64,000 nt of DNA from an uncultured Phascolarctobacterium sp. (GCF_900753045.1 NZ_CAADXO010000012.1:36588-100587), one strand, 5' to 3'. Shown: positions 3,278 through 49,174, counted from the first letter of the stretch. Numbers and translations: made by a program. Notes: generated by a model from the letters alone, not told the origin.

Positions 3278-3853
3278 ATGCAATTTCCGATAGTTTTAGG
3301 TGTTTCTGCACGTCACGCACATCTGTGCCGTGAGCATATGGATATTTTATTTGGTGAAGGCAGCGAGCTGCACGTTAAAAAGGCAATCGGCCAGCCTGGT
3401 CAGTTTGCTTCCGAAGAACAGATTACCATGGTAACTCCCAAGGATTCCATGAAGCTGCGTATCATCGGTCCTCTGCGTCCGGAAACCCAGATTGAGCTTT
3501 CCCTGACCGACGCACGCAAGGTTGGCCTGGATGCTCCTATCCGCAACAGCGGCGACATCGCAGGCAGTGCAGGCGCTAAGCTCATCGGTCCGAAGGGCGA
3601 GCTGGAGCTGAAAGAGGGTATTATCATCGCAGCACGTCACGTGCATCTGTATCCGGAAACCGCTGAAAAATACGGCCTGAAGGATGGCGATATCGTTGAT
3701 ATCCAAACAGAGGGCGAGCGTTCCGTAACTATGCATAATGTTCTGGTACGTGCGGGCGTAAAGCATGCCGATGAGGTTCATATCGACACTGACGAAGCTA
3801 ATGCCTGCAACCTGGGCAGCGGCGTGATGGTTAACATCGTCTACAATAAATAA
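3278..3853 (+). CDS. pduL: Phosphate propanoyl/acetyl-transferase, PduL/EutD type
   Basis: Two copies of the PduL signature around ARH(A/V)HL: GVSARHAHLCREH near the N-terminus and IIAARHVHLYPE in the second half. Size is about 190 aa. Confidence 0.7.
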   Translation: MQFPIVLGVSARHAHLCREHMDILFGEGSELHVKKAIGQPGQFASEEQITMVTPKDSMKLRIIGPLRPETQIELSLTDARKVGLDAPIRNSGDIAGSAGAKLIGPKGELELKEGIIIAARHVHLYPETAEKYGLKDGDIVDIQTEGERSVTMHNVLVRAGVKHADEVHIDTDEANACNLGSGVMVNIVYNK

Positions 3854-3888
3854 TTCCACCGTTTTTCCAACAAAAGGATGGTGAGTAT

Positions 3889-5376
3889 ATGAAAAAAATT
3901 ACAGCCTTGGCAGCAGCACTTGTTTTGTGCGCTGCACATGCTTCAGCCTATGAAAACAGCTACGCAGGCTACAGCGTTAAGGACGGACAGCCTTACTATA
4001 AGCTGGAAGCGAAGAAGGTTTATGCGTATACCAATATCAGCAGCAAAAAGGTTTATCAGGATGAAGAGGATTTAAAAAATACCGCTGTCAACATCGTTAA
4101 CTATTACACAGCAGAGGATATGGAGCAGATTTTGGGCGATAAATTCTCTACTGCTTATTTTGATGCGGAATATGAGAAGCTGGCGCTCTTGGAGCGTTCC
4201 CAGCTTAATCCGAAAACTGTACCTGCGCCGCTGCTGGAGCTTGATAAATATGCCGAGCATGACAGTAACGGCAATCTGACGATTCAGAGCAAGGTGCTGA
4301 AGGAAAAGCTGGAAAAGCTTACGCCTCTTATTAAGACAGGAAAAATTGCCGGCAAAAAAGCGATAACTATTTCTTACCTATATAAACAGGGTGATGTGCT
4401 GGTTAAAATTGATACCAGCCTTGTTTCTGCCAACGACAGACTTTATCTGCTGTCTACCGTAAATACGGACCAGGATCTTTACGCACCCAAGAAGGACGAA
4501 AAAGATGCTGATACCGATGTGGATATTGATGATATCGATACTGACGAAGAAAGCGACGAAAATGACGAAGCAAAGACCGAGTCCAAGGATGCTGCTTCCA
4601 CAAAGGAAGATATGGAAAAGGCTCTGGAGGTTGAGAATGTTTTTGTCCGCGATGTACCGGCAGAAACAATGCAGCGCTTTGATAAAGCACACACTGATCT
4701 GCTGAAGGGCTTTAAGGCTTTTGCTCCGACAAGCACGCCGAAGGCCATCAGCTTTACTGATACTGCAGTCGGCAAAAGTGTGCAACTGCCGGATGACTGG
4801 TTCTACGGCCAGTTGAATCTCAAATACAAGGATAAGGGCACCTTTTACCTGACTTTGGCTTCTTCGATGAAGGAAATGCAGGAGGTTGCCGCTAATACTG
4901 ATTATGACAGCATTTATTCCGTATTATCTATTCCGCAGGCTGACCCCGAATACCAGAAGAAGGTTACGGAGCTTTACAGCAGCGGTGCGCGTAATGTTCT
5001 GGAGCATTGGAATCATCTGCTGATTACTGCCAGTGTTGACAACATTACCGACGCTGAAATCAAGGAGCTTCTTTCAACGCCTGTTGCCAACAGACTTGCT
5101 GTCGAGAGCTTTATCTCCGAAGGTCTGCAGCGCATGAAAGGCTTTAGCAACGAATACTTTGCTTTGAAGGATTATAAGACAAATTTTGACTTCACTCAAG
5201 AAAAAGCGCTCATCGACATCAGCGCTGATACCGATTTGCTGAAGGATTTTGCTTATAACAACAAAATTTTGCTGAGCTGCAACCAAAAAGCTGCTACAGC
5301 GATGCTTTTTATCAAAAAAACCGACGTTGAGACAGAAAAAAGCCTTGAACAGCAAGTAAACGAATGGCACTTTTAA
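3889..5376 (+). CDS. Secreted protein with an acidic low-complexity tract
   Basis: N-terminal signal peptide MKKITALAAALVLCAAHASA. Internal D/E-rich stretch DEKDADTDVDIDDIDTDEESDENDEAK. RBS GGTGAG precedes the ATG. Confidence 0.55.
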   Translation: MKKITALAAALVLCAAHASAYENSYAGYSVKDGQPYYKLEAKKVYAYTNISSKKVYQDEEDLKNTAVNIVNYYTAEDMEQILGDKFSTAYFDAEYEKLALLERSQLNPKTVPAPLLELDKYAEHDSNGNLTIQSKVLKEKLEKLTPLIKTGKIAGKKAITISYLYKQGDVLVKIDTSLVSANDRLYLLSTVNTDQDLYAPKKDEKDADTDVDIDDIDTDEESDENDEAKTESKDAASTKEDMEKALEVENVFVRDVPAETMQRFDKAHTDLLKGFKAFAPTSTPKAISFTDTAVGKSVQLPDDWFYGQLNLKYKDKGTFYLTLASSMKEMQEVAANTDYDSIYSVLSIPQADPEYQKKVTELYSSGARNVLEHWNHLLITASVDNITDAEIKELLSTPVANRLAVESFISEGLQRMKGFSNEYFALKDYKTNFDFTQEKALIDISADTDLLKDFAYNNKILLSCNQKAATAMLFIKKTDVETEKSLEQQVNEWHF

Positions 5377-31175: not shown

Positions 31176-32330
31176 CTAAGCTTCTATCACAGCAACGTGT
31201 TTTTCCGAACATTCCTGCAAGATGTGCCCATAGATAGCATAGGTGACCGCTATGCTAGTGTGTCCTAAGCGTTCTGTTATAAGAGCTATAGGTACATGCT
31301 TGTAAATCATGTTGGATGCATTTGTGTGTCTCAATCCGTGGAACGTGAAAGGTCTAGTGATACCTGCGCCTTTCCTAGTGAAATCCCACGCATGGATAAG
31401 CAACCGCTCCACATAGAAGCTATCTCTTTTCCTATTATAGAAGATATAAGGTGACTTGTCAAAGCTAAGTGGCTTTAAAGACATAAGAAGCTGTGTTGTC
31501 TTCTCAGATATTTTGATGGTGCGATACCCAGCTTGTGTCTTAGGGTATGTAACTATTGTCTTGTTATTCTTATCCTTAGCTAAGGTTCTTTTTACAGATA
31601 TTGTATTAGCAGCATCATCGAGACAATCCCACGTAAGAGCTAACAGCTCCCCTTCTCTCATGCCTGTTTCATAAGCAAGACAATACAGAGCATAGAACTG
31701 ATACTTCAGCATAGGTTTCTCCTTGTGCTCCCATAGGGGCAGGAGGAACGCTTTGATTCGCTCGTGCTCCTCTTGCGATAAGACAACCACTTCATGTTTA
31801 GGTTTGTCACTCTTTGGTGTCTTCTGCATCGAAGTTACAGGTGACTTTCCAATGAGGTCTTGTTCTACACACCATTTGAAAAAGAGCCTTAAGCGACCTA
31901 TATAATTAAGATAGGTATTAGTTGAATAGTTCTTTTGATGCCACTCTAAGAGCATGGTATCTATAGTATGAGTGGTGACCTTAGATAACGCTAAGCCATT
32001 AGCTGTTTTGTCTAGGAGCTTAAGTACACGCCTTGTGGTGATTATTACAGACCCTGACATCCGCTGAGCTTCTAGGTGCTTAAGGTACACCTCACCCTGA
32101 TACTTTATTGTGTCTTCTTCTGCTTTTACTTGCAGACCTTTATCCTCTTTGTCTCTCTGAAGCTTCTTCAGCTTCTCCACAGCTTCCTTTTTTGTGTCTG
32201 CTGTGGCTGATAGCCAACGCCTTTTGCCATCCACAGGGTCTAATTCTACCCTAACACGTACTTTACCGCTAGGGAGGACTATTATAGACCCCTCTCCTTT
32301 AGGTCTTCTACGAGTGGTTTTAGATGGCAT
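31176..32330 (-). CDS. int: Tyrosine-type site-specific recombinase (phage integrase)
   Basis: C-terminal catalytic region FHGLRHTNAS ... LGHTSIAVTYAIYGHI carrying the R..H-x-x-R...Y signature. Start at MPSKTTRRR, 7 nt after AGGAGG. Confidence 0.9.
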   Translation of the reverse strand: MPSKTTRRRPKGEGSIIVLPSGKVRVRVELDPVDGKRRWLSATADTKKEAVEKLKKLQRDKEDKGLQVKAEEDTIKYQGEVYLKHLEAQRMSGSVIITTRRVLKLLDKTANGLALSKVTTHTIDTMLLEWHQKNYSTNTYLNYIGRLRLFFKWCVEQDLIGKSPVTSMQKTPKSDKPKHEVVVLSQEEHERIKAFLLPLWEHKEKPMLKYQFYALYCLAYETGMREGELLALTWDCLDDAANTISVKRTLAKDKNNKTIVTYPKTQAGYRTIKISEKTTQLLMSLKPLSFDKSPYIFYNRKRDSFYVERLLIHAWDFTRKGAGITRPFTFHGLRHTNASNMIYKHVPIALITERLGHTSIAVTYAIYGHILQECSEKHVAVIEA

Positions 32331-32389
32331 TATAAAACCTCCTGACTTCAAAAATTGCCAAAAATTGTGAAAGGGTATATATAATATAG

Positions 32390-36643: not shown

Positions 36644-39229
36644 ATGACACAAGTAGATGTGGACATGATGGAAGAAGAATTGAAGTTGGAATCTGCCTAC
36701 AGATTAGCAGGGTATGAAACGATGCAACGCAACCTGCAACAAGCCAAAGAAAATAGCATGGTAGATACAGCTACCCCTATTGGACAAGCATTTTTCACCC
36801 ACAAGCTGTTGGCTGTAAAAGACACAATCGAACAATGGCTTATCAAGAACATGAAACCCAAAGCAGGTGTAAAGCCTAACTATACTTTTCTTTTGGAAGA
36901 CCTGAAAAGAGAGTTCCGCACAGAGGATGATGAGGTTGATATTGACACCATATCTTCTATCTGTGCTAGTGTTACCTTATCCGCTATCTTAAATGCCTTA
37001 ACTCTCAAAGGTGAAAAAGGCAACTATCTGAATGATGTAGCTGCTAAAGCTGGGCGTGGCTTGTACTATGAGTATCAGATGAAAGCCTTTGAAAATTGGC
37101 TGAAGACACAAGACACCAATAAAGGAGCATTGGCAGGTATAGAAAAAAGAGTTGGTCTCCATTATCGTTATGTCTATCTGAAACAGGCTATGTCCAAATG
37201 TGGCTACGCTGCCCCAAATTGGGATAGTCAGAACACAGCTATCCGTACATTAGGTACTGCTTTTGTTGTCTTAGCACAGGAGGAGACAAACTACTTCACC
37301 TTAGAAGCTACTATGGATACCCCTTCTGAGCTTATCCCCACAGAGCAATTTACAGAAGCGTGGCAACGCAATGAAGACAATATGCTGGAACATGCAAGAC
37401 AAAGCTGCCCTATGATTATCCCTCCTAAAGATTGGACAAGCTATGAGGATGGTGGTTATTATGGTGACCTTGCATCCTTCACCTCTCTCCTGCGTTTAAA
37501 GTACCTTGATACTATTTTTGGTAAACAGTACAAACGTAGACTTATGCAACTTGACATTCCACAGGTTTATAAGGCTGTCAATAGTATTCAGGCAACACCA
37601 TGGGTAATCAATAAGCAGGTATTAGAGGTGCTGAAGCAATGTAGACAAAACAACTATATCCCCTGCTCTAGTGAGAATGGAAATGTGCTGTCTTTAGAAA
37701 ATGATGATGCTCCCAAACAACCAGCATCCACAGCCACGGATGAGGAAATAAAGGCATATAAGAAAAAGGCTGTGGAATACTACAAGGGATTGAAACGTCG
37801 TATGTCTTTGCAGAATCGTGCAAATACTATTATAAATACAGCAGAACGCTTCAGCTCCTATGCACACATCTACTTTCCGTGGAACATGGACTTCAGAGGT
37901 CGCATTTACCCTATCCCCTCTTTCAGTCCTCAAAGTGATGATTTAAACAAAGGCTTATTACTTTTTGCAGACACACCACCTTGCCAACATGAAGAAGACA
38001 TCAAGTGGCTTGCCATTACCGGAGCGAACCTTGCAGGTGTAGATAAAGTAAGCTACGATGATAGAATTGCATGGGTATATCAGCATGAAGAAGATATATT
38101 AGCATCTGCTGCTGACCCTATGGGACATCAATGGTGGCTGCAACAGGATGAGCCTGTACAGATGCTGGCGTTCTGCTTTGAGTGGGCAAAGGCTAAGCAA
38201 TGGATAGTTGCACATGGCTCTATTGTTGGTTGGGTAACAGGTCTCCCCTATGCTCAGGATGGAACGTGCTCCGGTCTGCAACATTTCAGTGCTATTCTCA
38301 GAGACCCTATTGGTGGTAAAGCTGTAAACCTTGTACCCCAAGACAAACCAAATGACATCTATGCACAAGTAGCGGAAAAAGTCAATGAGTTTTTGAAAAA
38401 AGATGCAGTAAATGGCACTCTTGATGAATGGGATGAAAAGAAGCTGAGAATGAAGTTTGGCACAAAAACCCTTGCGCAAATATGGTTAAACTTTGGGGTA
38501 AACCGCAAGGTTACCAAAAGACCAACCATGACACTCGCCTATGGTGCTAAAAAGGCAGGATATACTGCTCAAATTATGGAAGACACCATAAAGAAGGCAA
38601 TGAGAGAGCAGGGAGAAGCGTGTGTCTTCACTCAATCTAATAATTTTCAGGCTGCACAGTATTTGGCTGGTCAGATATGGGATGCTGTGGGTCAAACAGT
38701 TGTAAAGGCTGTTGAGGGTATGGATTGGTTACATAAATGTGCTAAACTTGTCACAAAAAATTCAAATGTTGTATCTTGGGTTACCCCTCTAGGCTTACTG
38801 TTACAACAGAGCTATGTCAAGTTTGATATTGAAATTGTTAAGCTCAGATGTGCTGGAAAACGCTATCGTATCTATACTCCACATCAGAATGGACAGATAG
38901 ACAAAAGCAGACAAACAAATGGCATTGCCCCTAACTTCATTCATAGCATGGATGCATGTCACTTGCAACTTACAGTCTGCAAATGCAAAGATGCAGGAAT
39001 TAATCACTTTACGATGATTCACGATAGCTATGGTTGTCCTATGTCTCAGGTGGATATTATGTATAAGTTAGTAAGAGAAGCCTTTATAGAGCTTTATACA
39101 GAGCATGATGTTCTTGCTGAATTTAAAGAATCTCTACAATATTTAGTAACTAAAGAACTCCCTGCTCCACCTAAAAAGGGAGAATTAGACCTGAACATTA
39201 TAAGAGACAGTAAGTATATATTTTGCTAA
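36644..39229 (+). CDS. Single-subunit DNA-directed RNA polymerase (T7 gene 1 family)
   Basis: Motif A region DGTCSGLQHFSAILRD against T7 DGSCSGIQHFSAMLRD. Motif C MIHDSYG. LAFCFEWAKAK against T7 LAFCFEY. 861 aa against 883 aa in T7. Confidence 0.95.
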   Translation: MTQVDVDMMEEELKLESAYRLAGYETMQRNLQQAKENSMVDTATPIGQAFFTHKLLAVKDTIEQWLIKNMKPKAGVKPNYTFLLEDLKREFRTEDDEVDIDTISSICASVTLSAILNALTLKGEKGNYLNDVAAKAGRGLYYEYQMKAFENWLKTQDTNKGALAGIEKRVGLHYRYVYLKQAMSKCGYAAPNWDSQNTAIRTLGTAFVVLAQEETNYFTLEATMDTPSELIPTEQFTEAWQRNEDNMLEHARQSCPMIIPPKDWTSYEDGGYYGDLASFTSLLRLKYLDTIFGKQYKRRLMQLDIPQVYKAVNSIQATPWVINKQVLEVLKQCRQNNYIPCSSENGNVLSLENDDAPKQPASTATDEEIKAYKKKAVEYYKGLKRRMSLQNRANTIINTAERFSSYAHIYFPWNMDFRGRIYPIPSFSPQSDDLNKGLLLFADTPPCQHEEDIKWLAITGANLAGVDKVSYDDRIAWVYQHEEDILASAADPMGHQWWLQQDEPVQMLAFCFEWAKAKQWIVAHGSIVGWVTGLPYAQDGTCSGLQHFSAILRDPIGGKAVNLVPQDKPNDIYAQVAEKVNEFLKKDAVNGTLDEWDEKKLRMKFGTKTLAQIWLNFGVNRKVTKRPTMTLAYGAKKAGYTAQIMEDTIKKAMREQGEACVFTQSNNFQAAQYLAGQIWDAVGQTVVKAVEGMDWLHKCAKLVTKNSNVVSWVTPLGLLLQQSYVKFDIEIVKLRCAGKRYRIYTPHQNGQIDKSRQTNGIAPNFIHSMDACHLQLTVCKCKDAGINHFTMIHDSYGCPMSQVDIMYKLVREAFIELYTEHDVLAEFKESLQYLVTKELPAPPKKGELDLNIIRDSKYIFC

Positions 39230-39530: not shown

Positions 39531-39815
39531 ATGGTGAAACATGACCTCTGTCATGTTGAGTGCTTAGAACCTACAAAGCACTACGATGAGCATTATGCGT
39601 CCATGATAGGCTTAGAGCCTATTGAGCTGATGCAGCTTGTGTTGACCTATGATGAATTTATTGGCTTTCTCAAAGGCAACATCATCAAATACACCCTGCG
39701 AGCCGGAAAGAAGCAAGGTGAAGCTGCGGAAAAGGATGTAGCTAAGGCTAAACGCTATACTGAATGGCTCGTAAAACTTGGCTATAAGATGCCAATCAAT
39801 CCAAAGGAGGACTAA
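39531..39815 (+). CDS. Hypothetical phage protein, possibly DUF3310-like
   Basis: ...FIGFLKGNIIKYTLRAGKKQGEAAEKDVAKAKRYTEWL...; start MVKHD after AAGGAGG. Confidence 0.4.
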   Translation: MVKHDLCHVECLEPTKHYDEHYASMIGLEPIELMQLVLTYDEFIGFLKGNIIKYTLRAGKKQGEAAEKDVAKAKRYTEWLVKLGYKMPINPKED

Positions 39816-39819
39816 AAAT

Positions 39820-40317
39820 TTGGTAAACATTAAATTCAAAAAACTTGACCCTGAAGCCACTCTCCCCCAAGCAATGACAGGTGGAGCTGCTGGTCTTGAC
39901 TTGGTTTGTCTTAACCGCATGGCGGTGACACCGAACCGCTGGTCTTCAAAGGCAGCTATCATTCACACAGGCTTGGCTATGGAGCTGCCTGAAGGCTATT
40001 ATGCTGAGGTTGTCTTGCGCTCCTCTACAGGCAGAGACACAAAACTCAGACTTGCTAATCAGGTCGGTATTATTGATTCTGATTATCGTGGTGAAATCAT
40101 GTTGTATGTGGAGAATTTAGGTGACCATCTTGAAATTATTGATGCTGGTCAAAGAATTGCGCAACTGTTGATTCACAAGATTGAAGAAGTGGTGATTGAA
40201 GAAGTCACTGATGAGCTGTCTAAGACTGAAAGAGGTCTTGAAAGTGGCAGTACAGGCAAAGGTACTAAACCTGCTGTGAAGACAAGAAGAACCAAGGAGG
40301 GAGCTAAGGATGCCTAA
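39820..40317 (+). CDS. dut: dUTP diphosphatase
   Basis: dUTPase motifs AGLDL, RSSTG and GIIDSDYRGE. TTG start 9 nt after AGGAGG; the ORF-table start (39778) overlaps the previous gene. Confidence 0.85.
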   Translation: MVNIKFKKLDPEATLPQAMTGGAAGLDLVCLNRMAVTPNRWSSKAAIIHTGLAMELPEGYYAEVVLRSSTGRDTKLRLANQVGIIDSDYRGEIMLYVENLGDHLEIIDAGQRIAQLLIHKIEEVVIEEVTDELSKTERGLESGSTGKGTKPAVKTRRTKEGAKDA

Positions 40318-42146: not shown

Positions 42147-43763
42147 ATGGAGACACATCAACCCTGCCCTGCTTGTGGCAGCCATGATGCCCTAACCATA
42201 TATGAAGATGGACACAGTTATTGTTTTTCATGCAACACCTACTTTCGCAGCGACAAGGAGGAGAAAAAATTGTCAAGTGGTTTAAAGAAACAAGGTCTGA
42301 TAGACCTACAGGACATGGTGGTCTCCCCCTTGCCTAAGCGAAAACTGACAAAACAAACCTGCGCCAAATACGGCTACTTTACCTCTAAGGTGCATGGTCA
42401 GCCTGTGCAGGTTGCTTGTTACTATGATGATGATAACAAACTCTTGGGGCAGAAAATCAGATATGCTGATAAGACCTTTGAAGCTAGAGGTTCTTTTAGT
42501 GAGCGATTCTTTGGGCAACATCTGTTCCAAGGTGGCGGTAAGAAGCTGGTAGTGACCGAGGGTGAGATTGATTGTCTTACTGTCTCGCAGGTACAGGGTA
42601 ACAAATATCCTGTTGTGAGTATTCCTACAGGTGCTGCTAGTGCTGCTAAGGTCTTCAGAGCTAACTTTAATTGGCTAGAGAGCTTTGAGGAAGTCATTGT
42701 TATGTTTGATATGGATGATGCTGGACGTAAAGCAGTTAAGGCTGTTAGTGGTATCCTGTCACCTAACAAACTTAAGATAGCATGGTTGCCTTGCAAAGAC
42801 CCTAATGAATGTTTGCAGGAAGGCAAGGCTGATGCTGTTGTTAAAGCTGTTTGGGAAGCTAAGACATACACCCCTGCTGACATCATCAAAGGTGATGAGC
42901 TGTGGGAGGTATTGTCTAAGCATGAAGAATCCCTGAACTACCCCCTGCCTTGGGACATCCCACTGCAAAACATGACTGATGGGTTACGAAAAGGTGAGCT
43001 GGTAGTTATCACAGCAGGCACAGGTATAGGCAAAACTACGTTCGTTAGACAACTAGCCTATCATCTTGGTACAGAGTGCTATTGTAAAGTAGGTATGCTG
43101 ATGTTGGAAGAAAATGTTAAGCACACCGCCAATGGTCTTGTGTGTCTTAAGCTTGGCAAACCTGCCCATAGACCTATCATTGACAGTGAGTACAAAAAAG
43201 CATTTGAAGACATCATGGATAATTTTGTCTTCTACAATCACTTCGGCTCGCTGGAATGTGAAGACCTCTTGCAGACCATCCGTTACATGGTGACAGGTGA
43301 GCAGGTGGATTTTGTTGTCTTAGACCACATCTCCATTGCTATCAGCGGTCTTGACATTGAGAATGAGCGTAAGGCTACTGATGTACTTATGACGAAACTT
43401 CGTTCGCTTGTAGAAGAAACAGGTGTAGGAATGTTGGTTGTCTCTCACCTGCGCAGAACTGATGGCACTCCTGCTGAAGAAGGTGGAGCACTCTCCCTCT
43501 CACATCTGCGTGGTTCGCAAGCAATCTCACAGCTCTCTGATGCTGTGTGGGGTCTTGAAAGAAACCAGCAGGATGAGGGAATGAAGAAGAATCTTGTACG
43601 TGTGAGGGTGCTGAAGAACAGATATAGTGGTGATACAGGTATCGCCGGATACCTTGCATATGACAAGGAACATAATATCTTAAAAGCTGTAAAGGACTTA
43701 TCAGAGTATGAAGCACCTGCATGTCCTTTTGATACTGATGAAACAGAGAAAGGAGATTTTTAG
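42147..43763 (+). CDS. Bifunctional DNA primase/helicase, T7 gp4 family
   Basis: N-terminal Zn ribbon CPACGSHDALTIYEDGHSYCFSC. TOPRIM region LVVTEGEIDCLTV...YPVVSIPTGAASAAK...VMFDMDDAGRKA matches T7 gp4. Walker A GTGIGKTTF. The acidic C-terminus ends ...ETEKGDF. Confidence 0.9.
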   Translation: METHQPCPACGSHDALTIYEDGHSYCFSCNTYFRSDKEEKKLSSGLKKQGLIDLQDMVVSPLPKRKLTKQTCAKYGYFTSKVHGQPVQVACYYDDDNKLLGQKIRYADKTFEARGSFSERFFGQHLFQGGGKKLVVTEGEIDCLTVSQVQGNKYPVVSIPTGAASAAKVFRANFNWLESFEEVIVMFDMDDAGRKAVKAVSGILSPNKLKIAWLPCKDPNECLQEGKADAVVKAVWEAKTYTPADIIKGDELWEVLSKHEESLNYPLPWDIPLQNMTDGLRKGELVVITAGTGIGKTTFVRQLAYHLGTECYCKVGMLMLEENVKHTANGLVCLKLGKPAHRPIIDSEYKKAFEDIMDNFVFYNHFGSLECEDLLQTIRYMVTGEQVDFVVLDHISIAISGLDIENERKATDVLMTKLRSLVEETGVGMLVVSHLRRTDGTPAEEGGALSLSHLRGSQAISQLSDAVWGLERNQQDEGMKKNLVRVRVLKNRYSGDTGIAGYLAYDKEHNILKAVKDLSEYEAPACPFDTDETEKGDF

Positions 43764-44000: not shown

Positions 44001-45347
44001 ATGCTCTACTTTGATATTGAAACCGATGGTCTGCTGGACAATGTTACTAAAGGGCATTGTCTAGTAATCATCGACGAACAGAACAACATCTCAGCTTACA
44101 GACCTGATGATTTTAAAAAAGGAGCTATGCGATTAATCGCTGCTCTGAGGGATGGAGAAAGCATCTGCGGGCATAACATCATCAATTATGACTGTGCTGT
44201 CTTAGCTAAGCTCTATCCCGAGTTTCGCATAAAGCGAGAATGGAGACCACAAGTTTTAGATACCCTTGTGCTGTCACGTCTTATCTGTGGCAACATAGAA
44301 GATACTGACCACGCTAGGGTACGTAATGGTACACTCCCTGCTAAATTGATTGGTAGACAATCACTAAAGGCATGGGGTTATCGCCTTGGGGAACTTAAAG
44401 GTACGTATGGTGAGCAAGAGGATGCATGGGATTCTTTCAGTGAGGAAATGCTCTCCTATTGTGTGCAGGATGTCACTGTTACCAAGAAGCTCTATACATA
44501 CCTCATGAAGATTGGTGCACCTGCTAAGGCTATAGAGCTGGAGCATCAAGCACAATGGCTGATGTCTAAGCAGGAGCGGAATGGTTTTGTCTTTGACTTA
44601 GAAAAGGCAGAAAAGCTGAGGGAAACCTTAGAATTGCGCTATGCTGTGTTGTCTTCTCAGCTTGTGGCTATTGTGCCACAGATACCTGATAAGGTCTTTA
44701 TACCAAAAAGAGATAACAAACGCTTAGGGTATAAAGCAGGTGTACCTATTCAAAGATATAAGGACTTCAATCCTAGTAGCAGACAGCAGGTAGCATGGGT
44801 GCTGGAGCATCAATTCAACTACTTGCCGGAAAACGAAGACTGCTATGAGGATGAACGCCTGAAGATTGATGGTGATACCTTTAAGTTTATTAAGGGTGAT
44901 GAAAATGCCCCACAAGAACTAAGAGACTTAGCTGCTGTCTTTGAGGAGTATCTTATGGTGGCTAAGCGGTTAGGTCAGCTTGCCACAGGTAACCAAGCAT
45001 GGCTGAAGCATGTTAAGGCTGATGGTAGAATCCATGGTAGCGTAAATCCTTGTGGTACAGTAACAGGACGTGCTACCCATGCGAACCCTAATGTTGCCCA
45101 AGTCCCCCACGTTGGTAGTCCTTATGGTCAAGAGTGCAGGGAATTGTTTAGAGCACCTGAGGGTTGGTTTGAGGTAGGTGTAGATGCCTGTGGCTTGGAG
45201 CTTAGGTGTCTTGCACACTATCTTTATCCCTATGATAAAGGTGCTTATGCCCATGTTATCTTGAATGGTGATATTCATACATTGAATCAACAGGCTGCTG
45301 GGTTACCTACTAGAAACGCAGCTAAGACATTTATATATGCGTTCCTT
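44001..45347 (+). CDS. DNA polymerase (T7 gp5 family), exon 1: 3'-5' exonuclease and N-terminal polymerase part
   Basis: MLYFDIETDGLL (ExoI), HNIINYDCAVL (ExoII), and ...GRIHGSVNPCGTVTGRATH...LELRCLAHY...TFIYAFL against T7 TFIYGFL. The reading frame stops 5 codons after the T7-equivalent position, where the intron begins. Confidence 0.85.
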
Positions 45348-46002
45348 AAAATGCACTATTGAGGAACTAAAACCCATTGAAAACGGTGAAACTCTCACTG
45401 AGACAATACCGTGCTAAGATTTTGGAGGAAATGTGAATAGATGAACAAAACTAATCATTATAGAGGTGCAGAAAATCCACAGTATAAATATGGTGCTGGT
45501 GTCTTTGTTAGAAAAAGGACAGAGATAAAAGAACGTATTGGTAAATGTGAACGCTGTGGTAAAGATTTGACTAATGCAGGACATTATGAGTGGTGTGTGC
45601 ATCATAAAAACCATAACCATTATGATAACACTGAGGGTAATTATGAGTTATTATGCAAGAAGTGCCATCAATTAGAGCATCAATGTGTAAAGAATATCCC
45701 TAAATCATATGAAAAAGTATGTGAACTCTGTGGAGATACCTTTACTGCAAAAGCACATAATCAAAAATATTGCCCTGGCTGTCTCAAAGTCCAACGAAAT
45801 ATGCGCCGATATAGAAGTTTTGAGCAAATAAAAGCATATATCCTTCAAAATAAAGTGTAACGACTATTCCGTAAGGAAGTACAGCACAAGCTAATGGTGC
45901 TGGAAGTGGTGGGCATTGATGATATAGTCTATTCTCATAGGTGACTATGAGCAGTTTCTTAGAAAACGCTTGGGGACTTGCGAACCCTAGGGAATAATTA
46001 AG
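45348..46002 (+). mobile_element. Group I self-splicing intron in the DNA polymerase gene
   Basis: 5' exon ends ...TTCCTT. An internal guide candidate GAGGA 13 nt downstream can form P1 with a U-G pair at the splice site. The intron ends in G (..TAAG). Joining 45347 to 46003 restores ...TFIYAFL|YGAGDKAIG..., matching T7 ...TFIYGFLYGAGDEKIG. Confidence 0.7.
45441..45860 (+). CDS. Intron-encoded HNH homing endonuclease
   Basis: Zn-finger-like CERCGK and an HNH core HHKNHNHYDNTEGNYELLCKKCHQLEH. Own RBS GGAGGA. Confidence 0.8.
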   Translation: MNKTNHYRGAENPQYKYGAGVFVRKRTEIKERIGKCERCGKDLTNAGHYEWCVHHKNHNHYDNTEGNYELLCKKCHQLEHQCVKNIPKSYEKVCELCGDTFTAKAHNQKYCPGCLKVQRNMRRYRSFEQIKAYILQNKV

Positions 46003-46512
46003 TATGGTGCTGGTGATAAAGCTATTGGTAAACAGCTTGGTGGGGATGAAAAGGTTGGCAAGCAGGTAAAGAACAAATTCCTGAAGGCTACCCCTGCTAT
46101 CAAGATGCTGCGTGAAGCTGTCAAGAATACACTCGTGGTTGAGTACCACGGAAAAATTAAAGAATGGAAACGAAAATATTTAAGAGGGTTGGATGGCAGA
46201 CATCTCCATGTGAGAAGTCTACATTCAGCTCTCAATTTGCTTTTACAGTCCTGTGGTGCATTGATATGTAAAAAATGGATATGCCTATGGGAAGAAAACA
46301 TGATTAAAGCTGGCTATGACCATGGAAAAGATTTTCAATTCATGGCATGGGTGCATGATGAGGGGCAAGTAGCTTGCAGAACCGAAGCTATTGCTGAAGA
46401 AGCTGTGAGAATTGCCCAAGAATCTATGAGACAAACACAAGAATATTATGGAATCAGATGCCAATTAGATACCGAGGGAAAGATTGGTAAAAATTGGTAT
46501 GATTGCCACTAG
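46003..46512 (+). CDS. DNA polymerase (T7 gp5 family), exon 2
   Basis: YGAGDKAIGKQLGG...LRGLDGRHLHVRSLHSALNLLLQSCGALICKKW...AWVHDEGQVACRTE...QLDTEGKIGKNWYDCH aligns with the T7 gp5 C-terminus (...MGPNWAICH). Confidence 0.8.
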   Translation, partial: YGAGDKAIGKQLGGDEKVGKQVKNKFLKATPAIKMLREAVKNTLVVEYHGKIKEWKRKYLRGLDGRHLHVRSLHSALNLLLQSCGALICKKWICLWEENMIKAGYDHGKDFQFMAWVHDEGQVACRTEAIAEEAVRIAQESMRQTQEYYGIRCQLDTEGKIGKNWYDCH

Positions 46513-46518
46513 GAGGTT

Positions 46519-47154
46519 ATTACAATAAAGATATTAGTAGCATGTGAAGAAAGTCAACGTGTAACCATTGAGTTACGTAAGTTAGGGCATGAAGCCTATA
46601 GTTGCGACATCATCCCTTGTAGTGGGGGGCATCCTGAATGGCACTTGCAGCAGGATGTTATCCCATTGTTGAAAGAGAAGTGGGATATGATTATTGCTTT
46701 TCCACCTTGTACCTATTTCACAACAGCAGGTGCATGTCGCATGTTTCATAAAGTAGAGGGTGTTAGCATCCTGGACGAAGAACGCTATGCTAATGCTATG
46801 AAGATGAAAGCATTGTTTTTAGCTATCTATGAAGCAGATTGTCCTTATATTTGTATTGAGAATCCTACTCCTATGAAAGTGGTAGGACTTCCTCCTCATT
46901 CACAAGTTATTCAACCCTATCAGTTTGGGCATCCGTGGAGCAAAAGAACTTTATTATGGTTAAAAGGTCTTCCACCTTTGAAGGCTACATGTGTGGTTGA
47001 ACCCACAATGGGAAGTTGGGTTAATGGTTCAGCAGATGCCTACAAGAAAGCTAATGGAAAGCACAATGGCAAAAGTTCTGCTATTGAGCGTAGTAAGACC
47101 TTTGAGGGTATTGCTAGAGCTATGGCAGAGCAATGGGCAGGAAAGAATGTTTAA
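46519..47154 (+). CDS. C5-cytosine-methyltransferase-fold protein with a degenerate SAM motif and no target-recognition domain
   Basis: The frame is open from the DNA pol stop with no ATG/GTG/TTG before the TTG at 46645. Homology to C5-MTases, as I recall their motifs, starts at 46528: KILVACEESQ at motif I (FxGxGG expected), FPPCTYFTTAG at motif IV (PCQ), ICIENP at motif VI (ENV), and HPWSKRT at motif VIII (QxRxR). A conservative CDS would be 46645..47154. Confidence 0.5.
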   Translation: MTIKILVACEESQRVTIELRKLGHEAYSCDIIPCSGGHPEWHLQQDVIPLLKEKWDMIIAFPPCTYFTTAGACRMFHKVEGVSILDEERYANAMKMKALFLAIYEADCPYICIENPTPMKVVGLPPHSQVIQPYQFGHPWSKRTLLWLKGLPPLKATCVVEPTMGSWVNGSADAYKKANGKHNGKSSAIERSKTFEGIARAMAEQWAGKNV

Positions 47155-47533
47155 CATCCCCACTCTACTCTTAGTCATATGCACCGCCTATACCCCTGCC
47201 TTGGACGAATGTGGGAAGACCGATGGCATTACAGCAAGTGGACACCCTGCAATCATGGGGCAAACAGTAGCCTGTGATGGACTACCTCTAGGAACTGAGG
47301 TGGTTATTGATGGTCACAGCTACATTGTTCAGGACAGGTTCGGCGGTGATTATGGTAAGACAAAAATTGATATATTTATGAACACTAAAGCAGAAGCCTT
47401 TAGGTTCGGAAGACAAACAAAAATTGTGGAGGTAAAGCCTTATGTCGAAACAAAAGCAACCTTTTGTGCCAAAGATTGGTCAGAAGGTCTATATCAAACG
47501 TCAGAACTCCTTAGGAGAACCTATCTATTTTGA
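47147..47533 (+). CDS. 3D-domain (MltA/RlpA-like) cell-wall-binding protein with an N-terminal signal anchor
   Basis: LPLGTEVVIDGHSYIVQDRFGGDYGKTKIDIF matches the 3D domain pattern (GT.V.I.G...D.GG...IDIF). Its C-terminal 92 nt overlap the next ORF in another frame. Confidence 0.5.
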   Translation: MFNIPTLLLVICTAYTPALDECGKTDGITASGHPAIMGQTVACDGLPLGTEVVIDGHSYIVQDRFGGDYGKTKIDIFMNTKAEAFRFGRQTKIVEVKPYVETKATFCAKDWSEGLYQTSELLRRTYLF

Positions 47534-47657
47534 GGGTGAGGTAACAAGAATCCGTGTGGAAGTTAAGTGTAAGCAAGGTAGTTTCAGAACTGTAGCTTCA
47601 CCTCATACTTTAGAGACCAAAGCAAAAGGTCTTGTAGCAGGAGGTGACCTGTTCTGA
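47442..47657 (+). CDS. Hypothetical protein (71 aa)
   Basis: Strong RBS GGAGGT 8 nt upstream. Its stop overlaps the thyX start (TGATG), suggesting translational coupling. Confidence 0.5.
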   Translation: MSKQKQPFVPKIGQKVYIKRQNSLGEPIYFEGEVTRIRVEVKCKQGSFRTVASPHTLETKAKGLVAGGDLF

Positions 47658-48277
47658 TGGTAAGTGCTAAGCTTATCTCTATCACCCCTAACTACATGGA
47701 GGTATTGAAGACTGCTTGTAGTCAACCCTATGGTAAAGATGTTACTGAAAAGTCTATCAAGAAAATTATTGAGAGTGGACATCTTAGTGTCTTGGAGCAT
47801 TGCTCTGCTTCTTTTTTGGTTACGTGTAGTGTACGTGTCTTAGGACAACTCACGAGACATCGCCACCTCAGCTTCACCTGTAAATCTGCTCGTGGTAGTG
47901 TCTTTGATACCTGCATTATTCCTGATGGTATGTATGATTTTGCTAAAAAGCATGGCGTACCTAAAGAAGTTATTGATTCTATGATTGATAAGCATCCTAT
48001 GCTTCATGCCTACAAAGAATGTATTGCTGATGGTCTTAGTGAGCAGGATGCTGCCTATTTTTTACCACAGGGCGTTGAGACATCCTTGGTAGTAACAGGT
48101 AATTTTAGAGCATGGCATGAATATTTGCCTAAGCGTTTATGCAAGAGAGCTATGCCGGAGCATAGAGAGTTGGCTATGGCTATTCAAAAATGCTTGGCTG
48201 ATGCTGCACCTGAAATCTTTGATAAAAACTTTATGAACTGTAAGCACTGTACTGAAAGGAGCTGTGATTTTAAATGA
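47657..48277 (+). CDS. thyX: Flavin-dependent thymidylate synthase ThyX
   Basis: ThyX signature RHRHLSFTCKSAR (RHR-x7-S-x-R) plus the N-terminal HLSVLEHCSASF motif, 206 aa. Confidence 0.8.
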   Translation: MVSAKLISITPNYMEVLKTACSQPYGKDVTEKSIKKIIESGHLSVLEHCSASFLVTCSVRVLGQLTRHRHLSFTCKSARGSVFDTCIIPDGMYDFAKKHGVPKEVIDSMIDKHPMLHAYKECIADGLSEQDAAYFLPQGVETSLVVTGNFRAWHEYLPKRLCKRAMPEHRELAMAIQKCLADAAPEIFDKNFMNCKHCTERSCDFK

Positions 48278-48411
48278 TAATGCAGCTGGGAAAATGCTTT
48301 ATGTATGCTCTTATCATTCTTATCTTATTTATCCTTTTCTACAGTCTTTTTGTGGGTGGCGTACTTGCTATGCTTCACCTGCTGATGGAGGTATTTAATC
48401 TTGGCTTCTAA
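48274..48411 (+). CDS. Small single-pass membrane peptide (45 aa)
   Basis: MIMQLGKCFMYALIILILFILFYSLFVGGVLAMLHLLMEVFNLGF. Its start overlaps the thyX stop (ATGA) and its 3' end overlaps the exonuclease start. Not in the ORF table (under 60 aa). Confidence 0.35.
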   Translation: MIMQLGKCFMYALIILILFILFYSLFVGGVLAMLHLLMEVFNLGF

Positions 48412-49174
48412 ACCTTTACATCTGCTCTTTGATGCTGACATGATTGTCTTCCGCACCTGTGCAGCAGCAGAGCAGGAAATTAATTGGTATGGTGACCTGT
48501 GGACACTACACTCTGACTTAGCAGAGGTTAAGGATGCTATTGACACAATGATTGTCAGTATCACCGATAAAGTCCTGCGTCACATGGAGCACGAGGGAGC
48601 TTATACCATTACCATGTGCTTCTCCTGCTACCCCTACTTCCGCTCTAAAGTCTATCCCCCCTATAAGCTCAATCGTGTAGCTAAGAGAAAACCTCTTGCC
48701 TACCATTCTGCTGTTGAGTGGGTAAAGAAAAACTATAATGTGTTGTCTATCCCAAGCCTTGAAGCTGATGATATTTTAGGTATCTATGGGACAATGCCTG
48801 ACACCTCTGCTGTTATTATCAGCGGTGACAAGGATATGCGGTCTATCCCCTGTCCTTTTTATAACTTCATTCAGGACACATTCCATAAGACAACACAAGA
48901 AGAAGCTGACTATCAGTTCTTATATCAGACCCTTGTTGGTGATGTTACTGATAACTACAAAGGTTGCCCTAAGATTGGTGAGGTTGGAGCAAAGAGAATC
49001 CTAGACAAAGACTGCTCATGGGATGCTGTGTTAGCTGCTTATGAGAAAGCAGGTTTGTCTGAGGAAGAAGCACTGACACAGGCGAGGGTTGCTCGTATTC
49101 TCAGATATGAGGATGTTGATGCAGACCTTAAGCCTATCCTTTGGACACCCAAAGGGTCACAAAAGAGACAATAA
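48401..49174 (+). CDS. 5'-3' exonuclease (T7 gene 6 / FEN family)
   Basis: LLFDADMIVF, YKLNR, EADDILG, SGDKD, and the H3TH region LVGDVTDNYKGCPKIGEVGAKRIL. TTG start 8 nt after GGAGGT. Confidence 0.85.
   Translation: MASKPLHLLFDADMIVFRTCAAAEQEINWYGDLWTLHSDLAEVKDAIDTMIVSITDKVLRHMEHEGAYTITMCFSCYPYFRSKVYPPYKLNRVAKRKPLAYHSAVEWVKKNYNVLSIPSLEADDILGIYGTMPDTSAVIISGDKDMRSIPCPFYNFIQDTFHKTTQEEADYQFLYQTLVGDVTDNYKGCPKIGEVGAKRILDKDCSWDAVLAAYEKAGLSEEEALTQARVARILRYEDVDADLKPILWTPKGSQKRQ

Follow-up and report, generated by a model that had tools for sequence, protein, structure and literature searches.

Results

The open reading frame and its family

We analysed a stretch of 64,000 nucleotides (nt) from an uncultured Phascolarctobacterium sp. 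(GCF_900753045.1, NZ_CAADXO010000012.1:36588-100587), referred to as a whole as the window, and in it an open reading frame (ORF) at 46525-47154 on the + strand that encodes a methyltransferase-like (MT-like) protein of 209 amino acids (aa) with a predicted mass of 23.4 kDa. The ORF belongs to a T7-like prophage that runs from about 31 kb of the window onward, and it follows the gene for a family A DNA polymerase. The C-terminal exon of the polymerase ends with TAG at 46510-46512, and the same frame then stays open for 214 codons up to TAA at 47152-47154. An initial annotation of this DNA had described the open frame with its characteristic strings and had named TTG 46645 as the only canonical start codon in it. 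Translation bore out the former, the strings read in frame being ACEESQ (46540-46557), SCD (46600-46608), PPCT (46702-46713), ENP (46858-46866) and FGHPWSKRT, and a scan of the ORF for in-frame ATG, GTG and TTG codons returned this TTG only. The same annotation had translation run from 46513 or 46519, which we correct here, as the MKILVACEESQ of the homologues begins exactly at ATA 46525.

The protein matched PHROG 757 ('DNA methyltransferase') over its full length (E = 3.5e-52; residues 6-211 against profile positions 16-221 of 247). More than 8000 homologues were found in a large protein collection, and 4218 clusters at 50% identity were hit (E <= 0.001). Judged by the profile match and the number of homologues, the ORF is not a chance frame. 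Matches were found in 160 deposited phage genomes, with 31-57% identity to the phage copies, and the phage hosts include Flavobacterium, Vibrio, Pseudomonas, Cellulophaga, Ruegeria, Arthrobacter, Acinetobacter and cyanobacteria. Annotated PHROG 757 genes are carried by cyanophage P-SSP7 (gp12), Pseudomonas phage PA11 and Acinetobacter phage Ab105-2phi, and further ones by Flavobacterium, Vibrio, Ruegeria and Arthrobacter phages. At least 587 bacterial loci were confirmed in species-representative genomes, mostly of gut Clostridia. Nearly all members are about 200 aa long, and a few are domains of much larger proteins. The source databases name the homologues 'hypothetical protein' or not at all, and no precomputed Pfam domain is present among the 120 homologues listed. 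The family label 'DNA methyltransferase' is a prediction.

The divergent motifs had first been taken as a peculiarity of this protein. They are not: ACEESQ, PPCT, ENP and the absence of a target-recognition domain (TRD) are signatures of the whole PHROG 757 family, and every invariant family column of the 72-sequence alignment described below is present in the window protein. The new variant is the family and not the copy in the window, while a fixed ATA start and a recurrent frameshift in a G-tract are specific to the lineage of this copy.

Two members stand apart in their context. The 547-aa protein P0244 is fused to an N-terminal phosphoadenosine phosphosulfate (PAPS) reductase domain (PF01507, E = 8.5e-15); the PAPS-reductase fold serves DNA sulfur-modification and other base-modification enzymes, and the fusion may either hint at the chemistry or be an artefact of gene calling. 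The other member (L102, MG945386.1, 'unverified', 3790-4362) lies between VP1 and VP2 in a 5.6-kb Microviridae genome from pig faeces, and is an unusual accessory gene for a single-stranded DNA phage of about seven genes.

Fold and conserved residues

An AlphaFold2 model was built from 119 sequences and reached a mean predicted local distance difference test score (pLDDT) of 91 and a predicted template modelling score (pTM) of 0.88. Foldseek searches against the PDB and against viral models agreed on the fold of cytosine-C5 methyltransferases (C5-MTases), with DNMT3B and DNMT3A as the top matches, followed by a prophage-encoded putative DNA methyltransferase (3g7u) and M.HhaI. The C5-MTase fold that had been proposed from the sequence, with Foldseek as the check, thus holds for the catalytic domain as modelled. 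Motifs were aligned over 117 cluster representatives and over a cleaner set of 72 sequences with 38-58% identity to the query, and the M.HhaI sequence used was identical to PDB 10mh_A. Equivalences for motifs I, II, VIII and X were set by secondary structure and sequence pattern. The resulting elements are the following.

46540-46557, + strand: A6-C7-E8-E9-S10-Q11, loop after strand beta1 at the site of motif I (FxGxGG); strand at residues 2-6, helix from residue 11
46600-46608, + strand: S26-C27-D28, end of strand beta2; D28 invariant
46642-46656, + strand: H40-L-Q-Q-D44, strand beta3 with a motif III-like Asp; hhalign pairs D44 with D60 of M.HhaI
46684-46713, + strand: D54-MIIAF-P60-P61-C62-T63, motif IV with catalytic-type Cys; aligns with hDILCAGFPCQ of M.HhaI and PPCQ of DNMT2
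46858-46866, + strand: E112-N113-P114, equivalent of motif VI (ENV); aligns with ENV of DNMT2
46903-46968, + strand: Q127...P131..FG135....K140.T142..W145, region equivalent to motif VIII, from conservation; register by pattern against M.HhaI
46990-47088, + strand: variable Gly/Lys-rich loop, residues 156-188, at the TRD position; lowest conservation, pLDDT 73-82, variable length
47089-47136, + strand: R189-SKTFEGIARAMAEQ-W204, conserved C-terminal helix, motif IX/X-like, with G-I-A replacing G-N-A/S

Residues that are invariant or nearly so are C7-E8, S10, Q/G11, S26-C27-D28, P37-E38-W39-H40, D44, W53-D54, P60-P61-C62-T63 and R87 in the N-terminal half, and E112-N113-P114, Q127, P131, F134-G135, K140, T142, W145, R189-S190, T192 and G195-x-A197-x-A199-M200-x-x-Q203-W204 in the C-terminal half. 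C62, E112, N113, D28, H40, K140 and W145 are fully invariant in the 72-sequence alignment.

The Pro-Cys of motif IV and the Glu-Asn of motif VI are both present, with Thr in place of Gln and Pro in place of Val. The earlier reading of PPCT as motif IV (PCQ) and of ENP as motif VI is supported by the alignments with DNMT2 (motifs IV and VI) and M.HhaI (motif IV), and hhalign pairs D54...PPC62 with D73...PC81 of M.HhaI. At the motif I site the consensus across the family is [AG]-C-E-x-S-[QG], with C7 and E8 each conserved at 92% or more; H40 is conserved at 95% and D44 at 84%. In the model D28 appears to take the place of the ribose-binding motif II Glu of C5-MTases. W138-S-K140-R-T142 and G195-I-A197 were assigned as equivalents of motif VIII and motif X by pattern and secondary structure, not by residue-level superposition. 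With these registers K140 and T142 would occupy the two Arg positions of QxRxR, and the C-terminal helix would be the equivalent of motif X. Between the motif VIII strand and the C-terminal helix there are 43 residues in the window protein (28-69, median 44, in 216 family members), about 10 of which form a conserved strand and turn. The claim made at the outset that a TRD is absent was confirmed in the sense that the TRD position holds a short hypervariable mini-loop and not a domain.

Compared to C5-MTases (PF00145; M.HhaI, M.HaeIII and the DNMT3A/B domains), the MT-like protein has the same motif order, the Pro-Cys nucleophile, the Glu-Asn of motif VI, acidic residues ending beta2 and beta3, and a variable region at the TRD position. 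It differs from them in having C-E-x-S-Q for motif I, PCT for PCQ, ENP for ENV and a loop of about 30 residues at the TRD position and, in the registers set by pattern, Lys-x-Thr for the Arg-x-Arg of motif VIII and G-I for the G-N of motif X. Set against what we take to be the helix layout of M.HhaI, the secondary structure of the model has no counterparts of helices B and E. To our knowledge, the smallest active C5-MTase domains have at least 280 aa, compared to about 200 aa for PHROG 757. The best explanation of the predicted structure is that PHROG 757 is a stripped-down derivative of the C5-MTase catalytic domain, present here as a single domain. In our reading of the conserved residues, the adenosine-binding half of the pocket would be retained and the half that holds the amino-acid moiety and the transferred group would be rebuilt.

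A C5-MTase homologue with another transferred group is the phage DNA cytosine C5-carboxymethyltransferase CmoX (PDB 8yf3), in which ribose and adenine of the cofactor are bound by the motif II Glu and the motif III Asp, respectively, and its carboxymethyl group by an active-site Arg that mirrors the engineered M.MpeI variant N374K (PMC12783734). This Arg probably lies at the motif X Asn position. Unlike the MT-like protein, CmoX is full-size (333-residue PDB chain), recognises a GC motif, has a Phe stacking on the cofactor adenine, and is encoded beside the cofactor-making CmoA.

Start of translation

The features at the start of the ORF are the following.

46511-46516, + strand: Shine-Dalgarno sequence AGGAGG, overlapping the DNA polymerase TAG, 8 nt upstream of ATA
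46525-46527, + strand: ATA, putative non-canonical initiation codon, aligned with Met1 of the homologues

In order to describe the lineage we used the window together with 20 close relatives (L001, L002, L084-L101), which come from independent metagenome assemblies, giving 21 sequences. The start is ATA in 21 of 21 and never ATG, and all have the same Shine-Dalgarno sequence. The presence of ATA in 21 independent assemblies indicates a fixed feature rather than a sequencing error. Homologues open with MK(I/V)LVACEESQ, and the ATA of the window sits where they have ATG. The codon between an in-frame ATT (46519) and the ATA varies among the relatives (ACA, ATC, GTT). Between the window and L001 the proportions of synonymous (pS) and non-synonymous (pN) differences over the whole ORF were 0.28 and 0.011, respectively, a ratio of 0.04, and the 40 codons 5' of TTG 46645 carried 6 synonymous and 0 non-synonymous differences. 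This purifying selection upstream of the TTG indicates that the region is translated. From these comparisons we infer that translation starts at ATA 46525. Initiation from AUA in E. coli has been measured at 1-2% of that from AUG (bioRxiv 10.1101/063800).

Compared to other PHROG 757 members, the window lineage is set apart by ATA instead of ATG and by the poly-G tract in codons 34-35. Among 80 genomic loci of the wider family the start was ATG in 63, GTG in 7 and TTG in 2, and ATA was seen in L076 only. A relative with 83% identity (L003) has an ATG start and no G-run. In L076 (6001, a Dysosmobacter metagenome-assembled genome), an unrelated member of the family, ATA stands at the start position and is preceded by GGAG at a distance of about 9 nt; a TTG in the same frame is found six codons further upstream, so the true start is ambiguous.

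Gene callers and RefSeq give N-terminally truncated products of 137-169 aa in the lineage (for example WP_293690474.1, 162 aa, 'hypothetical protein'), because the callers do not consider ATA starts. The truncated products, as annotated, lose motifs I to III.

Three other ways of beginning the protein were rejected. A start at TTG 46645 disagrees with homology from residue 1 and with the constraint on codons 1-40, and its product would be without beta1, beta2 and the start of beta3. ATT 46519 lies 2 nt after the Shine-Dalgarno sequence and is followed by the variable codon, so that it behaves as part of a spacer. The polymerase and MT-like frames coincide, and L001 keeps the frame via a 3-nt insertion and ends its polymerase with TGA. 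A read-through fusion with the polymerase was rejected on the grounds that L003 has its own ATG in another frame, that L086 and L098 have a different upstream gene, and that a perfect Shine-Dalgarno sequence precedes the ATA.

Frameshifts in a G-tract

The ORF contains one further feature specific to the lineage.

46624-46629, + strand: poly-G tract GGG GGG, encoding Gly34-Gly35 (codons 34-35); length varies among relatives

As read from consensus assemblies, the tract was in frame in 13 of the 21 sequences (G6-CAT or G5-ACAT) and one G short in the other 8 (G5-CAT or G4-ACAT). It is the site of the only indel in the gene, and no other stop codon was found, in all 21 copies. L094 and L101, which are in frame, and L095, L096 and L100, which are out of frame, are identical across the other 629 nt, and at least four independent events of tract-length change are needed. 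A repeat tract whose length differs among relatives and shifts the frame is what is looked for in a phase-variable gene. As a control, we looked for other G or C runs of 5 or more in 46024-48524 and found none; with no control run, mutability of the tract and tolerance of frameshifts are not separable. On these alignments, the tract resembles a contingency switch or, failing that, a hotspot at which loss of function is frequently tolerated, in an otherwise strongly constrained gene. Programmed slippage may occur in the short alleles.

Phase-variable DNA methyltransferases (phasevarions), in which a repeat tract inside the coding sequence switches a modification gene on and off, offer a precedent, as does mom of phage Mu, a modification gene that is held at very low expression and whose product is costly. 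In contrast to phasevarions, the tract in the window has only 6 G, shorter than classical contingency tracts, and is known here from consensus assemblies, and the gene is carried by a prophage and belongs to no restriction-modification system of the host.

Discussion

Proposed activity

The invariant Cys62 and Glu112, the acidic residues at the adenosine positions, the fold, and the combination of a conserved core with a hypervariable loop together suggest that catalysis is covalent and acts on a flipped cytosine; DNA methyltransferases typically pair a conserved core with a recognition region that varies. We propose that the MT-like protein works alone as a low-specificity enzyme that modifies DNA cytosine at C5, probably an S-adenosylmethionine (SAM) methyltransferase that makes 5-methylcytosine and serves in anti-restriction, and we give this proposal about an even chance of being correct. 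DNA would be bound through a basic surface and through residues 156-188, the short variable loop found in place of the TRD. The cytosine would be flipped out, Cys62 of PPCT would attack C6, and Glu112 of ENP would protonate N3. Asp28 and Asp44 would hold an adenosyl cofactor, from which the activated C5 would then accept a group; this cofactor would most probably be SAM, giving 5-methylcytosine with little sequence specificity, and the modification would protect the phage DNA against host restriction. Expression would be kept low by the weak ATA start, which follows a perfect Shine-Dalgarno sequence and may be coupled to translation termination of the DNA polymerase gene, and repeated loss of one G from the G6 tract in codons 34-35 would turn the gene off. 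A weak start combined with a G-tract is the pattern that would be expected for an enzyme useful in infection and costly to the lysogen, where the cost is presumed.

Several results weigh against this proposal. With Pfam, NCBIfam, PADLOC, phmmer and hmmsearch against the PDB, and hhalign against M.HhaI alone and against 33 relatives, there were sub-threshold matches at most, around motifs III to VI. In particular, PF00145 scored 13.3 bits against a gathering cut-off of 22 and covered residues 53-103 only, NCBIfam gave no match for the MT-like protein, and the profile-profile comparison by hhalign with the M.HhaI relatives gave a probability of 3.7%. The best hit of the family profile in the PDB was DNMT2 (E = 0.78, motifs IV to VI), the sole PDB sequence picked up. 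The glycine-rich FxGxGG loop for SAM was not found at the motif I site, where C7-S10 stand in its place with an invariant Glu. By the registers set from pattern, the motif X Asn position is Ile196 and the second Arg position of motif VIII is Thr, so that cofactor binding and the contact to cytosine O2 cannot be canonical. We know of no C5-MTase that works without a TRD. The frameshifted alleles, in 38% of the relatives, show that the gene is dispensable for the prophage. A literature search found no characterised or assayed PHROG 757 member, and no assayed one is known to us. Since it fails the Pfam threshold and lacks motif I and a TRD, the MT-like protein is not filed here as a member of the C5-MTase family.

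If the family is active, it would hold the smallest known cytosine-C5 DNA-modifying enzyme and would show a methyltransferase core working without a recognition domain or a canonical glycine-rich SAM loop, which would help both enzyme engineering and the study of phage escape from restriction. The family is very widespread among gut prophages and marine phages, and its label, right or wrong, spreads to thousands of annotations. The conserved ATA with the recurrently frameshifted G-tract would be a compact natural case of a prophage that keeps a costly DNA-modifying gene, its cost being presumed, at low dose and switchable.

Alternative explanations

The first alternative keeps the fold and the Cys/Glu chemistry and gives up the dependence on SAM. 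The enzyme would use another adenosyl donor (modified or decarboxylated SAM) or none, with a non-methyl group at C5 as the outcome, or a cofactor-free deamination or exchange on the 5,6-dihydrocytosine intermediate. The loss of the motif I glycines throughout the family with an invariant Glu8 in their place, the Ile at the motif X Asn position and the fusion of P0244 to a PAPS-reductase domain all favour it. However, no CmoA-type gene for cofactor synthesis recurs beside family members or is present in the window prophage, Asp28 and Asp44 at the adenosine positions are conserved and fit ordinary SAM, an Ile at motif X is compatible with a methyl group, and the motif I and X registers come from secondary structure and pattern and not from structural superposition. 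We consider a different donor unlikely. A broader form of the argument is that PHROG 757 as a whole may be no methyltransferase family, its rebuilt pocket (invariant Cys7-Glu8, Ser10, Cys27-Asp28, His40 and the Ile at the motif X site) taking another donor or none and serving an undescribed cytosine modification or deamination. The ATA start and the poly-G switch would then reflect the toxicity of that chemistry, and thousands of genes labelled 'DNA methyltransferase' would carry a wrong label over an undescribed chemistry. This, too, seems doubtful to us.

A target other than double-stranded DNA, either RNA (as for Dnmt2 on tRNA) or a single-stranded nucleic acid, would explain the missing TRD. 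Consistent with it, DNMT2 was the one PDB sequence found by the family profile, and one member is encoded in the 5.6-kb single-stranded DNA genome of the Microviridae phage. The DNMT2 match, however, has E = 0.78 and spans motifs IV to VI only, the fold is matched best by DNMT3B and DNMT3A, both DNA enzymes, and then by 3g7u and M.HhaI, and the gene sits in DNA replication and recombination modules. We regard such a target as very unlikely.

It is similarly improbable, if anything slightly more so, that the gene in the window prophage is a decaying, unexpressed remnant or that only a 169-aa product from the TTG is made. The lack of a canonical start codon, the 8 frameshifted sequences out of 21 and the products of 137-169 aa from gene callers and RefSeq would fit decay or truncation. 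Against this, the ratio of non-synonymous to synonymous change (dN/dS) is about 0.04 over the whole ORF with no non-synonymous difference against 5-6 synonymous ones in codons 1-40, the ATA and the perfect Shine-Dalgarno sequence are invariant in the 21 sequences while the spacer codon varies, no copy has any other indel or stop, and a TTG product, being without beta1, beta2 and the start of beta3, would be unable to adopt the modelled fold.

Finally, the protein could belong as one subunit to a split methyltransferase, as in M.AquI with its two polypeptides, with a partner that supplies the TRD or cofactor elements, for which its small size, the missing TRD and the overlap of its stop with the start of the next ORF (47147) would speak; this is highly improbable, since the adjacent ORF encodes a 3D-domain protein with a hydrophobic N-terminus and not a complementary MTase fragment, no neighbour family recurs in 150 flanking ORFs, and the C-terminal helix of motif IX/X type appears to complete the fold in the model.

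Genomic setting

The other genes of the prophage that were placed are the following.

31176-32351, minus strand: tyrosine integrase
36644-39229: single-subunit RNA polymerase
39778-40317: dUTPase, 6.2 kb upstream of the MT-like ORF
42147-43763: primase-helicase
between primase-helicase and MT-like ORF, ending with TAG 46510-46512: family A DNA polymerase
47147-47533, + strand: 3D-domain ORF, 128 aa (Pfam 3D domain, E = 7e-5)
47657-48277: ThyX, followed by a 5'-3' exonuclease
from 49801: portal protein

The initial annotation placed the MT-like gene beside ThyX and dUTPase and suggested a link to the thymidylate pathway. ThyX is in fact two genes downstream and dUTPase 6.2 kb upstream, and the proposed link found no support in the wider family, where Pfam scans of 150 flanking ORFs at 66 genomic loci showed no recurrent partner. 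The commonest flanking families were SSB (4), helix-turn-helix regulators, DNA polymerase B, Gp157, RusA, YopX, replisome organiser, helicases and terminase. The family gene is a free-standing accessory of replication and recombination modules and is not tied to thymidylate genes, a TRD subunit or a cofactor synthase.

The 3D-domain ORF lies directly downstream, with its ATG overlapping the end of the MT-like ORF (AATGTTTAA). Its N-terminus is hydrophobic (MFNIPTLLLVICTAY) and may be a signal or lipoprotein sequence. It is intact in 20 of 20 relatives, yet gene callers never predicted it there, and it overlaps a called ORF of 71 aa (47442-47657) by 92 nt.

The polymerase gene upstream is split by a clean 655-nt insertion (45347-46001) that is absent from L002, where the gene is uninterrupted. 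Within the insertion are an HNH-like ORF (45441-45860) and a match to the Rfam group I intron RF00028 at 45775-45951 (29.2 bits, E = 3.9e-5, below the gathering score). We read it as a probable self-splicing intron that carries a homing endonuclease, of the kind known from T7-like phages. In L001 (3324-5866) and L090 an Endonuclease_7 ORF lies about 15 nt from the insertion site of the window, L094 has an HNH_3 ORF in or after the polymerase gene, L086 and L098 have an extra ORF of 129 aa between the polymerase and the MT-like gene, and the polymerase call in L091 is broken into two parts. Homing endonucleases seem to turn over at a single locus across the relatives.

The prophage as a whole is a T7-like podophage with a single-subunit RNA polymerase that is integrated in the Phascolarctobacterium chromosome next to a tyrosine integrase. 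Identical proteins assign the host and phage parts of the window alike to Phascolarctobacterium, among them WP_293690398.1, WP_293690457.1 and WP_293690466.1 of 'uncultured Phascolarctobacterium sp.' and the nicotinate phosphoribosyltransferase of P. succinatutens. Its part of the window has 39-43% GC with a steady positive GC skew, and the host part has 43-58% GC.

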